Below, one piece after another: positions 1 to 6,098 of a stretch of DNA of 37,983 nt. The position numbers were made by a program, and so were the translations under genes. Numbering within the stretch: the stretch's first letter is position 1; each line of letters opens with the position of its first letter. Origin of the DNA: Ionaspis alba (taxonomy: Eukaryota). The stretch covers positions 1 through 37,983 of the forward strand of contig CAXUUL010000069.1 of NCBI GenBank assembly GCA_964255285.1, in the 5' to 3' direction. Under the pieces are notes generated by a model. The model had not been told where the DNA came from, searched no databases, and saw only the letters and a list, made by a program, of their open reading frames with translations.

Positions 1-455
1 ATCTTTGTAGTAGGATACGGCTTTATTAGTAGTCATCTATTCGCGCCTGTCAATCTCAGCTTCTGCAAGCCGCGCTCAAGTTGCGGAAGCCATATCATTT
101 TTTCCAAATACAATTAAAGCTGTTCTGGCAGTTCCAGGAACCAATCGATGTTTAAGGTAGGCTTTTCCTCACGCCTTACTGTGCAGTAGGGGAAATCACG
201 CGAGCCGGCTATGATCTCAGCTACAACATTGAGCCAAGCGAGCCAAGCAGTACCGTAGTTAGCGATAGGGGTAGCCATTCTACCTTTGGATCCAGCTTTT
301 GAGTCGTTTTGATCGACACAGGTGATCGCCACGAGTCTGCATCAAGTCTTTGACGTTCAGGCACGAATACCGCGTGGTGATGTCCTTGGTCATTGTGTTG
401 CAATGCGGCTGTCAGAGACTGGCATTCCTGGCGCAGCAAGACATTTCCTTGCAAA

Positions 456-2579
456 TCATTTAACAAGCCGGAAGGTCTCCCATTTGTCCTCCAGATCCGG
501 CAACATCTGCAGAAATACGTTTTGTTTGAAACCTGCTAGCAATGCAAACATGATGTGTCGGTCACCTTTCGCGGAAAGAACATGCAGGAAAGTGCCCCCT
601 GGAAAGTAACAGATTCGACATCCGTTCATAATAGGATGGGCGGAATATCCAACGCGACCCTCAGTGGTGATAAAGAAATAACGACTAGCATTCTCAAATC
701 GAAATCGGAAGCATGACTGTAAAAGATCTCGGGCTTTGCCCATCTCGATCTGCATTCGCGTGGCTGTCTCTTCCCACGTCTGGCTGCCAGTTGCATGCGC
801 TGCCTTGAAGAAGTCAAGCCATTGTAAAAAGATATTGTATTTTTGCTCGAAAGGCGTTGGCCTATCGGGATCGTCGTCACGCATGGAACAATTGAGCCAT
901 GCCTCAGAACGAGCAGACCCGCGGCCGGTCTCCAAGATGAAAAACCGATGGAGCTGATCCAGCCACTCGATGTGTTCAGCCTTGCACGTCAACGCAAACA
1001 CTTCGGGCGAGGTCCGCCAGCGCAGGCGCCGGGTGAGGTCATCCAAGTCTAGCCTCTCCGACGCGATCGCAAGACACTTGTGAACAGTGTCAAGCTGGAC
1101 TCCGCGGACGCTCAGAGCACTGAAACTCTCGTTAAAATGAAGGTGCCCACGGTCTCGTGCAGCGCCCACCAAAGTAGGAATCACGGAGCTGTCTTCGGTC
1201 GCCAAGCCGACCAGATTCAAAAGTCGGCGGCTGCTAAAGTCTGGACACCAGGATGGAAGATTTTCCGGTCGAGTCGAGGCAGTAGGATCGCACGACTCCA
1301 TAAGGAGCACCCACATTAAAGGGCCGTCCGGGACTTGACATGCGACTCGTAGGGCATTTGCAAACACAGCAGCCGCTGAGAAACGATAGTCAACAGGGAT
1401 AGCTGCACGAATCGCCTTGTCACATAGACCGAGGACTCCGAAGATCAAGTCCCGCGGGTCTTGTGCCTTGCGAGCGGACGTTTGATATAAGATGTCTCCA
1501 AATGAGTACCGAGGGCCCATGCTAAGCCTGGTGCTGAGCTGGCTGCCTTCAACGGACATAAGGAAATGGTCAATGGAGCCATGCGAGATCACCACTGTTC
1601 TCACAGGATAAAGTACACCAATGTATATGGCTGGAAGGAGCAGATGGAGACAGTCCCTTAGCGTTTCCCATCTCACAGGCGCTGGTGGGCTTCCGCAGAA
1701 CACCAGCGCGTGCTTCGATAGCACGATTTCTTGAAGTGTCCATAGCCTACAGAACCACGGTCGACCGGCAAGTTTCAGAAACGCAATCCAGAAAACATCA
1801 TCCTGCCCAAAGAGATTTCCCTGGAAAGGTGCTTGCGCAACAAGCGCTCTCAGCTCGTTGCCTTCCATTGGCGCATTGGTTCTCTTGTAGTGGTCTCCAA
1901 GCGTGGATAGCAAAGCCTCGAATGCGTCTAGAGTTGGTTGCGTGATATCATATGTTTTTTTGAGAGTCGTTGCTTGTCTCTCACGCTGGCTGAGAAGATC
2001 GGGACGCCGTAACTGTCCTGATGTAGTCTCCGAAGCTCCACTATTGTCCACTGCTTCTGCCCTCGTGATTGGCTCACCACTAGGCAACTTGTGTAGTCTG
2101 GACGAGAGATCCAGCCACATTATCACGGCCATGGCCCTCTTACTGTCATCTGCATGCTCCCCCAGCCAGACTAGAACCTCACTAGCTTGTCTGAATACGC
2201 AGTCCATTTGCTGGACCTGATGCGACTTCTCCTCGTTGTTGCTTTGATCGATGCAGACCGCGTCAATCCACATGGGCTTAGGCTTCAAGCCGCCAGCCTC
2301 CTGAGCTTTGAACCAAGCGTGCAATGCCTTGATTGCAGCTAGAAGGCTGGGAGTAATCCTGAACAACCCACCATTGACATTGATAGGAAGGTCGGGCGGG
2401 TCAGCGCCCCAGCAATATGACAACGCACAATACTCTAGACAGCTTTCCCGGGAAACCGTTCGCAGCGTGCAGTAAGGCAATCCATCATCCGAGATTGAAT
2501 CGATGCTGAGAAGGCGTATCTGCACTGGCTGGAGAGGCTGCCCGTACTGGAACGACTCCACATAGCAATCCGAAGACAT
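456..2579 (-). CDS. HET-domain (heterokaryon incompatibility, HET-6-like) protein, intronless, 707 aa
   Basis: Canonical HET motifs YCALSYCWG, MWIDAVCIDQSNNEEKSHQVQQMDCVFRQASEVLVWLG, RPWFCRLWTLQEIVLS; HET-6-like downstream motifs DPRDLIFGVLGL, LPSWCPDF, RYFFITTEGRVG. Confidence 0.93.
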   Translation of the reverse strand: MSSDCYVESFQYGQPLQPVQIRLLSIDSISDDGLPYCTLRTVSRESCLEYCALSYCWGADPPDLPINVNGGLFRITPSLLAAIKALHAWFKAQEAGGLKPKPMWIDAVCIDQSNNEEKSHQVQQMDCVFRQASEVLVWLGEHADDSKRAMAVIMWLDLSSRLHKLPSGEPITRAEAVDNSGASETTSGQLRRPDLLSQRERQATTLKKTYDITQPTLDAFEALLSTLGDHYKRTNAPMEGNELRALVAQAPFQGNLFGQDDVFWIAFLKLAGRPWFCRLWTLQEIVLSKHALVFCGSPPAPVRWETLRDCLHLLLPAIYIGVLYPVRTVVISHGSIDHFLMSVEGSQLSTRLSMGPRYSFGDILYQTSARKAQDPRDLIFGVLGLCDKAIRAAIPVDYRFSAAAVFANALRVACQVPDGPLMWVLLMESCDPTASTRPENLPSWCPDFSSRRLLNLVGLATEDSSVIPTLVGAARDRGHLHFNESFSALSVRGVQLDTVHKCLAIASERLDLDDLTRRLRWRTSPEVFALTCKAEHIEWLDQLHRFFILETGRGSARSEAWLNCSMRDDDPDRPTPFEQKYNIFLQWLDFFKAAHATGSQTWEETATRMQIEMGKARDLLQSCFRFRFENASRYFFITTEGRVGYSAHPIMNGCRICYFPGGTFLHVLSAKGDRHIMFALLAGFKQNVFLQMLPDLEDKWETFRLVK

Positions 2580-3150
2580 GAATTCTAAGTATTACTCATG
2601 CAGACGTACAGGACATGCTAAAAAAACTGCTAGAGGTCTGTACGTCCTCCCTCGGCCTGTACAGGCTCCTTAAAAGGGGTTAGTTGATTTAAGTAGATTC
2701 GAAGGATCTAAAGCATAAGACAGGACTGCTGCATGGTACAATCAAATCAGACCAGCTGGAAACTTTCCATAGCCTTTACACTGCACTTGAACGTAGATAT
2801 GCATTCACATACACCTATCTAATAAGTTCATTGAAACAATTATCAAACAGATTGAAAGGGTAACATTTGAGTTGACCAATGTCGAGATGGCCTGAAGGAT
2901 AGACAGTGATCAGAAATGCGCGGCCGCGACTTAACCGAGTTTTGGCTAGGCTGCAATTGGTCACATTCGTTGAAAGCCCGATATTAAGTTGCCGGCTAAA
3001 GATGGCGCAATCTCTGCGGAGCAACAGCTGCTGCTGAGAAGGCACACTCCCTATGACTTGACTCGGTGAGAGCATGGATCCGTTATCACCGGAGAACTCC
3101 CATGACTACCACTCCATCTCCAACCGCTTCACCGTGAGAGCAGTCCATAC

Positions 3151-4159
3151 AAAATGTTTTCAGAGTCGCGATTATTCTTCACCCAGCATTTCTTCAGTTG
3201 GTAGATGAGCCTCCATCCGTTAATATCACGGCGTTGCAAAACCAGGTCAATGTCTTTTAAAGATTAACATGCCATCCATAATAAGGCGGGCGCCGTGATT
3301 TGCCCCATAGCGAAGGCCTCCCGCGTAGAAGGTAGCCAACCTTACTCCTATCCAGCAGTAAATTCGGCAAACAGGGAAAACTGCAATCGGTAACGCTTGT
3401 GAACGAAAATGAAGTCGTCCTTAATCCAGAGGGTAAATAGGAGCCGCGTAAGGTCGCGGAGAGTGACAAAATACTTCAGTCGCCGCTTGTTGACCACGAG
3501 ACCTTCCGCGGTTAGGGGTTTTCGTACCCACTAAAAAGCGTAAGACTGGTGATTCCACCACGCCCACCACGAAATACAGTGCAACTCATATTGTACACTT
3601 CGCTTCGTTCCTCAGCGTCCGTCGAGGTTCCTGTGACTCGTGTGAAACCGGCGAAGAACCATTCCGCGAACGTATTAACGGAATCGGCGGTTGGCCTCTC
3701 GACGATCTTGCCTCGGCTCGTGGCGACTTAGAAGCGGAGGAAATCTTTAACAGTGGCCAGGTCCGGAGCATCGAATCCTTCCTCTAAGTAGCATTTTCGA
3801 ATGGCAGTCTCATCCGGTGGCGGTAGCCTTCTCCGAGCGTGGTCTCTCTGCGTCTCGCCGAGATTCCAACTGTTTCCTCCGTGTCAGTTCCGAGCCCTAG
3901 ACCGATCGATCAAGAGAAAGAGATCTTCCTTCCAGAATATAGCGATTCACGGCTGCGTCTTGGTCCTTCCTCGTCTTCTTGACATGCTTATAACGGTCGC
4001 GAGCCTCGTCTTCCTCTCGGTACTCCCCCTCCTGTAGCCGTTGGCTTCGGCCTGAGCCAGGAGATCGTCCGCAGTAGCGCAGGCTCCGCGGTGGCAGCGG
4101 TGGTAATGGTAGAACGGTGGTGGCGATAAAGAGGGCGAGTGCGAGAGAGAGGAGGACAT
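3151..4159 (-). pseudogene. Degenerate DUF3435 tyrosine recombinase (Starship captain-like), 3'-truncated
   Basis: Manual translation across frameshifts and introns gives LLAQAEANGYR/EYREEDEARDRYKHVKKTRKDQDAAVNRYIL, APDLATVKDFLRF*VATSRGKIVERPTADSVNTFAEWFFAGFTRVTGTSTDAEERSEVYN, WVRKPLTAEGLVVNKRR...DLTRLLFTLWIKDDFIFVHKRYRLQF, YCWIGVRLATF...GLRY, DIDLVLQR...WRLIYQLKKCWVKNNRDSENI. These match DUF3435 proteins as I recall them. In-frame TAA at 3728-3730, at least 3 frameshifts (first about 4025-4029), non-canonical donors (GGAAGG, ATGAGT). Confidence 0.82.
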
Positions 4160-4605
4160 TGTGCTATTAGATTCCGCGAGCGCCCTGTCTGCTTCTTGTA
4201 TCCACAGTAGAGAAGCGGCCTTGTCCACCGTATGAGGCGCCAAAAATGGATCCCCTTTCGTGGGAGCCGTATTTTGCAGACAGAATAGGTAGAGACTGTG
4301 TTGCGGGTGACCGTCGCGCGACTCACCCTCGCCCTCACCCTGGCGTCCGAGAAAGAGTAGTTAAGAGCGGCGTCGTGTGGGTGATAGGTCGAGTGAGCTC
4401 GGAGCAGATTTTAGTGATTTTAATCTGCCAAGACATGAGGCTCCCCTACTCAACGGTCTAGTGGGGTCCTGCGTCATGCAAGATTGAAGCTCAATGGGCC
4501 CCGCAACATTATTTCCTCGCGTGTAGTGTACAAATCTCTGCGCACCTCTGTGATATAAATTATAGACAACTCTACCTCTGACACAATAAAAGCTCCAGAA
4601 ACATA

Positions 4606-5695
4606 ATGCAAGCGGCCAATCGATTGCAGAAGGCCTTGAAGACCGGCTCCGGCCTGACCTTTGGCGCATGGCAGATGTTGCCAGGAAGCAACCATTCGAG
4701 AACAATTGCAAGATGCGGGTTTGATTGGGTCGCTGTGGACACAGAGCATGGCAATATTGACGGCAAGCTGAAACATGCAGATCGACGTATTCAAACGGCA
4801 AATCAGGCGGCTAATGTCTGCACTCAATAGACGGTGCTATGCACGAAGCTGTGGCCGCCATCGCGGGATGCGGAGTAAGCCCAATTGTGCGCATAGCGGC
4901 CAACGAGGGTTGGATGGTGAAAAGTAAGATTGCTCTGCGGCTGCAACATGAGGAGCAGGCTAACGCTGCATGCAAATCAGGGGCTCTTGATTCTGGTGCT
5001 CATGGCATAATTGTACCGCTCCTATACACGGCGGATGATGCGAAGAAACTTGTCAATTCTGCAAAGTTTCCGCCCAAAGGCCAGCGAGGATTCGGCTCGC
5101 CGTTTCCGATGGAGAAATTTGGTGGACAGACGACGGCAGAATATTTGCAACAAGCCAATGATGCGCTTCTGACAATTGTGCAAATCGAGACGAAAGAGGC
5201 TCTGCAGAACGTAAGACATCTCTTTCTCTTCTGAGTGAGCGAATCCTATAATTTCAAATTGACGTGCGATAGATTGATGCCATTGCAAAAGTTCCCGGTA
5301 TTGATGTCCTCTTCGTTGGACCTTATGATCTTGGAAACAACATCGGACATCCCATTCTTGATGGTACAATGCACGAGGAATTGAAGCAAGCTATAGCCAC
5401 TATCCTGCGGACGGCCAAGGAGAACAAGAAGAGCACGGGTATATACTGTACATCGGGAGACCAAGCCAGACAATTTGCGGACCAGGGCTTCAATATGGTA
5501 CGTGACTTCCATATGGAGATCTTACGAAGCTGACACTCCTTGCAGATATCGGTAGCTGCCGATATGATAGCATTACCCGCATATTTCACGCAAGCCCTCA
5601 CCAGCGCGAAGGGTTCGTATGTCCACTCAGCGTTGCACCTAGCCAAAGGAGCAGTCTCTGGAGCTGCAAAGATGACGGGGCCGTATGGACGGTGA
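4606..5695 (+). CDS. HpcH/HpaI aldolase family protein (5 exons)
   Basis: GFDWVAVDTEHGNID, ALDSGAHGIIVP, KFPPKGQRGFG, IVQIETKEAL, DVLFVGPYDL motifs. First intron 4763-4830 is GC-AG; stop TGA at 5693-5695. Confidence 0.92.
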
Positions 5696-5719
5696 GAACG
5701 AACGAACAGATATGTGCCA

Positions 5720-6098
5720 TCATGAATGGCCTTCTGCTTCGTTAATAAATGCTTCCACTTCCGCCTCCGTGAAACGGTGCATGAGTTTTCGAGCTTCAGT
5801 CGCAATGTCTGGCTTAGAATATGTATGGAACACGCGCTGGACGTGTAACTAGCAATAGATTAATCAGAGTAGTCAGTCACCAGAGAACTGTAGGATCTAC
5901 CACAGGAGTATCGAATTCGTATATGTCTTTCCATTGCTTTTGTCCTGTGGCCATTACATCCACTTCATTGAATTCAAAACTTCTCCTCTTTCCCAGGCTC
6001 GACAGAACCGACTTTGCACAATCACACAGGGAGCAATTGGCGCGCGTAAAAAGAGTAAGACGAGCACTATGTTGCAACAGCCTTGAAGACGCCTTCAT
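5720..6098 (-). CDS. Glutaredoxin-like protein (DUF836 type), 2 exons, probably mitochondrial
   Basis: LTLFTRANCSLC (CxxC), WKDIYEFDTPV|LHV spliced, KLMHRFTEAEV C-terminus; basic, presequence-like N-terminus. Confidence 0.88.

Follow-up and report, generated by a model that had tools for sequence, protein, structure and literature searches.

Probable remains of a Starship-type captain gene between a HET-domain gene and a block of housekeeping genes in Ionaspis alba

The locus described here raises two questions: whether the left end of a 37,983-bp stretch of Ionaspis alba DNA (the window, apparently an entire contig) holds the head of a dead Starship-type element and, if it does, whether the adjacent HET-domain gene was once carried by that element. 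The original prediction, made from the sequence alone, placed a broken DUF3435 captain gene at 3151-4159 (minus strand), an intact intronless HET gene about 570 bp downstream on the same strand, and the return of housekeeping genes at 4606. This layout was recovered. From left to right the window carries the HET gene (-), a gap measured at 565 nt, the recombinase relic (-) and an aldolase gene (+) from 4606 onwards (Table 1). The 5' side of the relic faces the housekeeping flank and its 3' side faces the HET gene, on whose strand it lies, an arrangement that would suit a captain placed at the 5' end of an element. The start of the aldolase gene agrees with its Pfam match (PF03328) and with contigs of organism B found in the sequencing-run search, which match exons 4606-4728, 5146-5213 and 5308-5355. 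With it begins a series of housekeeping genes identified with Pfam, which continues rightwards with PhoD_2, Leo1, BRCT, tRNA methyltransferase and ESCRT-II genes. At the other end, 455 bp of DNA are visible beyond the HET open reading frame.

Table 1. Features of the left part of the window, by position
Feature	Position	Strand	Evidence
HET-domain gene, 707 aa, uninterrupted, no intron needed	456..2579	-	ORF and Pfam PF06985
Spacer between HET gene and relic, presumably with the HET promoter	2580..3133	.	
Probable DUF3435 (Starship-type) tyrosine recombinase pseudogene; possible original ATG at 4159	3134..4075	-	tblastn, profile HMM, DNA similarity
Intron 3 donor GTATGG, still intact	3145..3150	-	alignment with L054, L064, L071
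WVKNNRDSENI, most conserved motif of the family, last exon-3 sequence ahead of intron 3, Lys box	3153..3185	-	three-frame translation
Probable intron 2, about 48-52 nt, exact ends uncertain	3254..3305	-	segment missing from full-length relatives
YCWIGVRL, counterpart of CWTGARI/L in relatives, first Arg box, Arg kept	3337..3360	-	three-frame translation
1-nt deletion that truly shifts the frame, close upstream of the Arg box	3367..3368	-	reading against P0001
Intron 1, 59 nt, donor mutated to AT (ATGAGT)	3531..3589	-	gap in full-length proteins of alignment A1
In-frame TAA replacing Tyr of the (F/Y)Y motif	3728..3730	-	alignment of relatives
Intergenic stretch, 446 bp, between the possible ATG of the relic and the aldolase ATG	4160..4605	.	
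HpcH/HpaI-type aldolase gene, introns present	4606..5533	+	Pfam PF03328, E 5e-10 on exon 4818-5234

The captain call was borne out by homology. All 151 related proteins compared with the window by tblastn gave matches confined to 3120-4075, for example with P0001 (E 2e-64) and P0004 (E 3e-35), well past what chance would give; the rest of the 38-kb window yielded only values above 0.07. Eleven long relatives match the relic at E 1e-17 to 1e-35, and 13 of the 15 longest pass the PF11917 cut-off. At the DNA level, similarity of 65-76% links the relic to 33 metagenome loci and is restricted to 3134-4081. A profile built from 12 full-length relatives matches the relic (i-E 3e-32 and 2e-28) at states 21-250 of 579 only, and states 251-579 found no match anywhere in 2300-4300 in an HMM search with --max and E<=100. 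The relic consists of an N-terminal core-binding-like part followed by ~100 positions from the start of the catalytic domain, amounting to ~43% of the gene. Its membership of DUF3435 is transitive, since both the relic pieces and the closest relative with an intact reading frame fall under the Pfam threshold. None of the 14 stop-free pieces of the relic, which keeps only about the first 100 of the 418 PF11917 profile positions, reached the gathering score in the Pfam scan, and P0001, at 13.7 bits, stays below the cut-off of 25.8. Judged from these comparisons, 3134-4075 (-) is very probably the derelict 5' part of a DUF3435 captain gene, the head of a Starship-type element.

The conserved boxes fit this picture. 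YCWIGVRL, predicted to be the retained Arg box, lies at 3360-3337 and aligns with the corresponding motif of the relatives, in whose alignment A1 the positions A148 and R149 of this box are nearly invariant; we take its Arg to be the catalytic one, from what is generally known of tyrosine recombinases. WVKNNRDSENI (3185-3153) is read in a separate frame from the Arg box, and K203, N205 and P208 of its region are nearly invariant in the relatives. Similarity had been said to be lost after this motif, and it does end just past ...ENILYG: resemblance to the relatives runs ~15 nt into intron 3, the lowest blastn coordinates being 3134-3136. Neither the HxxR box nor the catalytic Tyr (IHxIRRG and a C-terminal SY in the relatives) was found in the relic with the 151 proteins in tblastn or with the profile.

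The gene had further been described as frameshifted, stop-containing and damaged at its splice sites. The last two points hold. At the position of the TAA many relatives have TAC and others CAC, CAT or CAG, with a stop in none of the 25 aligned loci, and the intron-1 donor at 3589 reads AT in the relic against GT in all five aligned relatives. The frameshifts held up in part: the 1-nt deletion at 3367/3368 is real (P0001 reads QFTLIFRMYCW where the relic reads QFSLF-x-RIYCW, and the HMM match shifts frame at 3372-3307), whereas two other apparent ones are introns, of 59 and about 52 nt. Intron 2 probably also lacks GT at its expected donor (TAT, GGGGCA after the putative junction). At least two further frame changes fall between about 4045 and 3868, and the N-terminus is scrambled. 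With these lesions in its sequence, the relic is unable to make a protein or to move anything. For annotation the case is of some value, as lists of open reading frames miss relics such as 3134-4075 and two seeming frameshifts in it are introns.

Over 264 well-conserved aligned positions the window shows 23 changes of its own, 15 of them C:G>T:A and 2 T:A>C:G. The TpA/ApT index of the relic is 0.90 and its (CpA+TpG)/(ApC+GpT) index 0.89, both on the RIP side of the thresholds in use. We do not claim RIP for the relic: its GC content (0.527) is not depressed, and a CpA context accounts for just 3 of the 11 C>T changes.

What kind of element the captain would have headed was approached through its relatives. 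Eighty metagenome loci were fetched, and the downstream open reading frames were scanned in 15 with near-full-length and 7 with truncated captains. Within 10 kb downstream, DUF3723 occurs in two of the 15 near-full-length loci (L008, L037) and a ferric-reductase FAD domain in one (L036). In another (L074) HeLo, NB-ARC and HET lie within 8 kb of a full-length captain; L024 is followed by P-type ATPase and Nramp metal transporters and L053 by an NRPS. In 8 of the 15 (for example L006, L027 and L060) the 10 kb scanned showed neither a recognisable auxiliary gene nor a cargo gene that could be named. The NRPS apart, the genes seen at the intact relatives are those named for Starships in PMC9156397 and PMC11162782. 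Given the DUF3723, ferric-reductase, NLR-type and metal-transporter genes downstream of its full-length members, the captain family of the relic is of Starship type; environmental fungal contigs contain it in abundance, in the company of these typical genes as well as in the form of truncated stubs.

If a boundary of the element survives, it must lie in 4160-4605, between the possible ATG of the relic and the aldolase gene. No boundary feature was seen in that interval, nor did it match the relatives' upstream DNA in blastn. Neither an empty site nor a second end of the element was seen. Comparison of the flanks of the relic with the 80 related loci (blastn, tblastx) returned no shared upstream or downstream DNA and no orthologous locus. 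Direct or inverted repeats were not found in 1-6000, and a tRNA scan and an Rfam search, 5S included, were also empty. The spacer 2580-3133 matched neither the 151 captain-related proteins in tblastn nor the captain profile HMM, tblastx against the 80 loci was empty at E<=0.1, and its 96-aa open reading frame has no Pfam match. DUF3723, FRE, PLP and NLR genes are absent from 1-4600, where the sole gene is the one for the HET-only protein.

The predicted protein of that gene matches PF06985 over residues 50-284 with 88.1 bits (cut-off 22.5, E 9e-25), and its alignments with full-length homologues, themselves HET proteins of 600-720 aa, cover 95-100% of it. These are distant: identity to the best non-self homologue is 33% across 95% of the protein, and to the best short fragment 37%. 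PF26639, precomputed for many distant HET homologues, is not listed for the window protein. No NACHT/NB-ARC or repeat domain was detected in its 707 aa (Pfam, E<=0.01), so it falls outside the NLR type that counts among the auxiliary genes of Starships. Its GC3 (0.56) lies among those of 11 other open reading frames of the window (0.44-0.62). Whatever its origin, the HET gene is today an ordinary gene, maintained in its own right. There is close to an even chance that it was cargo of the element and is the first such gene to survive; that it is the host gene on the far side of the deletion is a real possibility on which we would put somewhat less than even weight.

We propose that an element of the captain family of the relic would have inserted on the upstream side of the aldolase gene, no more than ~450 bp from it and with the captain oriented away from that gene. 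Point mutations biased towards C:G>T:A would then have eroded the captain, and a deletion or rearrangement that began inside intron 3 would have taken away at least 57% of the captain gene, the catalytic part. What else was lost with it separates two readings. The original prediction in its full form has the HET gene as the first surviving cargo of a large Starship running leftwards, with its 5' boundary in 4160-4605 and its cargo kept by the host; we regard it as possible, at somewhat less than an even chance. The HET gene is adjacent to the relic at 565 nt and on the same strand, its low identity (<=37%) to homologues among the searched proteins is what would be expected of an accessory gene, and the end of the contig 455 bp beyond it is compatible with a region that is hard to assemble. 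HET and NLR genes are recurrent companions of Starships (PMC9156397), and derelict Starship regions with retained cargo have been described (10.64898/2026.05.11.723792). Among the relatives, a truncated captain is followed by a HET gene on the same strand at L054=L069 and by a HeLo-like/TPR/ankyrin gene at L055, which together with L074 places HET or HeLo-like genes beside captains. However, HET-like genes near a captain amount to 4 of 80 loci (3 distinct), not clearly above the background for so abundant a gene family, and the HET protein of L054 is only ~25% identical to that of the window, which leaves no conserved pairing of captain and HET gene. A GC3 equal to that of resident genes, the lack of NACHT and the failure to find further auxiliary genes in 1-4600, repeats in 1-6000 or an empty site also speak against former cargo.

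On the second reading the relic is all that remains, a deletion or aberrant excision from intron 3 having taken the rest of the captain and all of the cargo, and the HET gene is a resident beyond the 3' end; we regard this as a serious possibility, still short of even. Internally truncated captains occur in 24 of the 80 related loci. Two of the seven truncated loci that were scanned continue within ~3.5 kb with plainly core-looking genes, L009 with MFS, CTLH/LisH and Pumilio genes and L012 with Mis14. At L010 an ABC-transporter open reading frame begins right where the captain relic of that locus ends and is accompanied by a ZIP transporter, and at L073 there is an SMC-like open reading frame; these may be cargo or DUF3723-like, leaving two of seven as clear cases. 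As truncated relatives often abut core genes (L009 and L012, with L010 less clear), a relic free of cargo is an equally natural outcome. The composition of the HET gene, like that of residents, agrees with this, and HET-domain genes are abundant outside Starships. Against it stands the enrichment of HET and NLR genes on Starships reported in the literature.

The last alternative, that the fragment was at no time part of an element with cargo at this site and is a piece of a solo DUF3435 gene or a copy made by ectopic repair or segmental duplication, is improbable: solo YR genes do outnumber bounded Starships by 10,212 to 559 in the figures given in PMC11162782, where many solo ones may be pseudogenes and 'few YRs are associated with cargo' is listed as one possible reason, and 8 of the 15 near-full-length loci have no recognisable companion, but homology from the very N-terminus, introns included, points to a genomic copy that began at or before the gene start, as expected of the head of an element. 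A second version of 3611-3859 in sequencing run X1, differing by 16 letters (6%) and present at ~1/3 of the depth, could be cited in favour of a duplicate; the extra depth in X1 extends over the aldolase bins as well, a pattern that a second strain would explain better than a paralogue.

Among known systems the relic is closest to solo, pseudogenised or derelict Starship captains. It shares with them its homology to PF11917-positive proteins, the Starship genes downstream of its relatives and its place at the edge of a housekeeping block, reading away. It differs in that only 43% of the gene is left, HxxR and Tyr are gone, and direct repeats, TIRs and auxiliary genes are unseen. Pseudogenised captains (that of Wallaby, for example) and derelict elements have already been described in PMC11162782 and PMC9156397. 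The relic is therefore of an ordinary and common kind. The Starship-like region of Gluck-Thaler et al. (2022; PMC9156397) is defined by colocalisation of DUF3723, FRE, PLP or NLR genes with DUF3435; the window is like it in having DUF3435 beside a HET-domain gene and lacking TSDs, and unlike it in that no such colocalisation is seen in 1-4600, whereas it is at the relatives L008, L036, L037 and L074. A Crypton (CryptonF) is likewise a eukaryotic DNA element that uses a tyrosine recombinase, but the relatives of the relic are PF11917-positive and carry Starship auxiliary genes, and DUF3435 captains form a clade separate from Crypton recombinases (PMC9156397). The HET protein agrees with PF06985 proteins in its clear domain and full-length alignment, although as a predicted member it is very divergent, at most 33% identical to any full-length protein found. 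It differs from a fungal NLR in having neither a central NACHT/NB-ARC domain nor C-terminal repeats (Pfam, E<=0.01).

The relic marks the site of a former Starship-type element, as we read it, beside a core gene block. Were the HET gene proven to be former cargo, the locus would illustrate, on a small scale, how a host can hold on to an allorecognition-type gene once the vehicle of that gene has died; such retention has already been described for other cargo, and the general significance is low.

The truncation point itself recurs. Besides the window, 9 of the 24 truncated loci (~6 distinct) stop at one residue, 241-242 of P0009, and their downstream DNA is mutually unrelated, L009 having core-looking genes within ~3 kb. 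The locus with the best DNA match to the relic (L034, 66.6% over 950 nt) has the identical truncation point; it shows no match to the window HET gene and its flanks are dissimilar. Captains of this family could conceivably break preferentially at intron 3, right after WVKNNRDPEN, an idea we rate as quite unlikely. Read boldly, such stubs may record excision that was aberrant and partial, or recombination, at a cryptic site within the captain gene, and every such event may leave an N-terminal stub at the old insertion site. If this were true, intron-3 stubs would mark former Starship sites genome-wide.

The stretch is present in two sequencing runs only, X1 (share 0.96), possibly the source sample, and X2 (organism B). 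In X2 organism B has no cover over 1-4600 and is too distant to bear on an empty site, its matches being limited to housekeeping exons at ~75-80% identity and depth 16-49. X2 also contains a few identical pieces at depth 2-4, which look like carry-over from organism A.

Three-frame translation of 4620-2580, upstream of the HET ORF, yields recognisable peptide pieces in differing frames. None of 14 stop-free pieces of this relic gene matched the Pfam model of DUF3435. One 60-aa piece (3351-3530) led, in a collection of 5.8 billion proteins, to a longer protein, P0001 (225 aa, 72% identity, E 1e-15), the sole match among 12 candidates for that piece and colinear with all pieces of the relic. On its own P0001 scores 13.7 bits on PF11917, below the cut-off of 25.8. 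An exhaustive phmmer search with P0001 returned 659 proteins, mostly short fragments, at E<=1e-3, and 294 of them reached E<=1e-10; the 15 longest relatives scanned all matched PF11917 at E<=0.01, 13 of them above the cut-off, with a maximum of 111.9 bits.

The original prediction described a broken DUF3435 gene beside an intact HET gene, with a conserved flank resuming at 4606, and this was confirmed. All 151 relatives matched the window by tblastn, only within 3120-4075. With 12 long relatives (E<=10, word size 2), nothing better than E 0.07 was obtained elsewhere in the 38-kb window. A profile of 12 full-length relatives (579 states) matched the relic at states 21-54, 53-132 and 127-250, plus 186-208 in a shifted frame; states 251-579 remained unmatched in 2300-4300 when --max and E<=100 were applied. 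Transitive homology, without a direct Pfam hit, establishes the relic as the N-terminal ~43% of a DUF3435 protein.

Two stretches that P0001 reads through are missing from the full-length proteins of A1, an alignment of such relatives, and are therefore introns, with window counterparts at 3589-3531 (59 nt) and about 3305-3254. Two of the frameshifts originally proposed are thus introns, while the 1-nt deletion is a true frameshift. The expected donor of intron 2 would be GG instead of GT, the exact ends of this intron being uncertain. Where the relic carries its nonsense codon, TAC stands in many relatives, and the 25 loci aligned there are all free of a stop. At least two further frame changes are required in the N-terminal 100 codons (about 4045-3868). 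In most relatives intron 3 comes after ...PENI, and the similarity of the relic to them ends wholly at 3134-3136. The absent ~330 codons would take up >1 kb, and the HET start codon lies only 565 nt from this point, which makes the truncation genuine rather than a failure of detection. The relic retains the Arg that corresponds to R149 of P0001 and hardly varies among relatives, as well as the Lys of WVKNN, and it is without the IHxIRRG box and C-terminal SY of the relatives in A1; the catalytic roles of these residues are presumed from tyrosine recombinases in general.

Features of the window and of metagenome loci with related captains
Feature	Position or loci	Strand	Remark
HET ORF, 707 aa, uninterrupted	2579-456	-	ORF listing
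WVKNNRDSENI	3185-3153	-	three-frame translation
YCWIGVRL	3360-3337	-	three-frame translation
Intron 3 donor GTATGG, intact	3150-3145	-	similarity runs ~15 nt into intron
1-nt deletion, true frameshift	3367/3368	-	just ahead of Arg box
Intron 1 donor		-	AT in window vs GT in 5/5 aligned relatives
TAA replacing Tyr codon	3728-3730	-	nonsense codon
HpcH/HpaI aldolase gene	start 4606		right of relic
Near-full-length captain	35/80 loci
Captain cut by contig end	21/80 loci
Internally truncated captain	24/80 loci
DUF3723	L008, L037		downstream of near-full-length captain
Ferric-reductase FAD-binding domain	L036		downstream of near-full-length captain
NB-ARC + HeLo	L074		downstream of near-full-length captain; also HET-like match
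P-type heavy-metal ATPase + Nramp	L024		downstream of near-full-length captain
NRPS	L053		downstream of near-full-length captain
Deaminase	L031		downstream of near-full-length captain
ORFs without Pfam match	L006:2618-3883, L008:2912-4180, L027:11819-13081, L036:11792-13033, L037:11778-13076, L060:11962-13077
Exon-3/intron-3 breakpoint	L009, L010/L011/L028, L021, L034, L066, L072/L073

Decay was counted over 264 positions at which 5 or more related loci show >=70% agreement. The relic (3144-4159) has 23 window-specific changes at these positions, 15 of them C:G>T:A and 2 the reverse, and its decay is C>T-biased. Its dinucleotide indices are 0.90 and 0.89, versus 0.65 and 1.26 for the rest of the window. 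Because the GC content of the relic is not lowered and CpA is not favoured (3 of 11 C>T changes, with no context preference), classical RIP is not claimed as the cause.

An A1-based scan of JGI metagenome contigs gave 80 loci, whose completeness was measured against the related protein P0009. For the downstream survey 24 loci with long downstream flanks were chosen by eye, obvious duplicates being omitted, and the stop-to-stop ORFs of at least 140 aa that 21 of them contained, 129 in all, were scanned. Passages of PMC9156397 name DUF3723, FRE and NLR genes as auxiliary genes of Starships; since relatives of the relic have such genes downstream, calling it a Starship-type captain remnant is justified at family level. 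At L024:14601-20573 an Nramp transporter and a PCA1-like heavy-metal P-type ATPase lie downstream of a full-length captain and look like metal-resistance cargo. In six near-full-length loci an ORF of 370-430 aa without a Pfam match lies on the same strand directly 3' of the captain. This ORF might extend the captain at its C-terminus or represent a companion gene; no counterpart was seen in the window.

In nine of the 24 truncated loci, about 6 of which are distinct, homology is lost at residue 241-242 of P0009; the window (3134-3150) breaks off at this very exon-3/intron-3 point. The DNA beyond it is mutually unrelated among loci, and the actual breakpoints vary by tens of nucleotides. Because the loci were retrieved with a pattern just upstream of the breakpoint, and the exon after it is less conserved, ascertainment bias, which is likely, and detection bias could together explain much of this clustering.

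The window is eukaryotic, with fungal-type genes and short introns. To the right of the aldolase gene follow a PhoD-like phosphatase, Leo1, BRCT, a tRNA methyltransferase and ESCRT-II. The HET protein has its PF06985 domain at residues 50-284 (88.1 bits, E 9e-25), the only domain found in its 707 aa by a Pfam scan at E<=0.01. It is an outlier among 5.8 billion clustered proteins, the best full-length homologue being merely 33% identical (37% for fragments). Named distant homologues come from lichen-forming and rock-inhabiting ascomycetes, as well as many further ascomycete groups.

The HET gene may be former cargo of the captain's element, a reading only slightly likelier than its main rival. 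It adjoins the relic on the same strand, and it has no closer homologue than those just described; HET and NLR genes are tied to Starships in parts of PMC9156397. A truncated captain is likewise followed by a same-strand HET gene in one metagenome locus (L054, identical to L069), and by a same-strand HeLo-like/TPR/ankyrin gene in another (L055). However, the HET gene of L054 is just ~25% identical to that of the window, and of 80 loci just 4, representing 3 distinct ones, have a HET-like gene close to the captain. Also against a cargo origin, or neutral to it, the HET protein is not an NLR, the GC3 of its gene (0.56) is like that of 11 resident ORFs (0.44-0.62), no further auxiliary gene is present, and scans for repeats, tRNAs and Rfam families found no repeat and neither a tRNA nor a 5S gene. 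Core-looking genes often stand directly after truncated relatives (CTLH/LisH and Pumilio in L009, Mis14 in L012), and in L010 an ABC-transporter ORF begins where the truncated captain of that locus ends. Almost as probable as cargo is that the HET gene is instead a host gene lying beyond a deletion which took out the whole element. It is improbable that the fragment was never the head of a cargo-carrying element at this site. The dead Starship-type captain of the original prediction stands, whereas HET as retained cargo, an element boundary at 4160-4600 and a leftward extent are unproven. The HET protein's own record gives 37,983 bp as the longest contig, the length of the window, so the sequence left of the window appears to be absent from the assembly.

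Solo and pseudogenised copies are the rule and not the exception among Starship captains, as far as sections of PMC11162782 describe them. The same sections count 10,212 solo YRs, of which 'many may be pseudogenes', and 559 bounded elements, give the Wallaby captain as an example of a pseudogene, and recommend the terms 'derelict' and 'degraded' for dead copies. Regions that stem from derelict Starships and have kept useful cargo are described by 10.64898/2026.05.11.723792. The locus is thus a fresh example of something known and an ordinary finding. Neither 'truncated captain' nor 'captain fragment' occurs as an exact phrase in any of the 10 papers that the literature search listed.

In X1, a sequencing run of a possible source sample, another version of a stretch of the relic (3611-3859) differs at 16 of 249 nt and carries a deletion of 1 nt at 3873, at a depth of ~31 versus ~91. 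A second version or extra depth is also seen near position 61 and in bins 1801-2100 and 5101-6000 (parts of HET and aldolase). This suggests a second strain or haplotype, about 6% divergent and with the same features; paralogues are possible. The run of organism B, X2, the sole further run in which the region occurs, matches housekeeping exons only, and this organism is too distant to inform on an empty site. Short pieces identical to the window (547-2162 and elsewhere) occur in X2 at 2-4x, beside the divergent orthologues of organism B at 16-49, and look as if they had been carried over from one library to another within a study.
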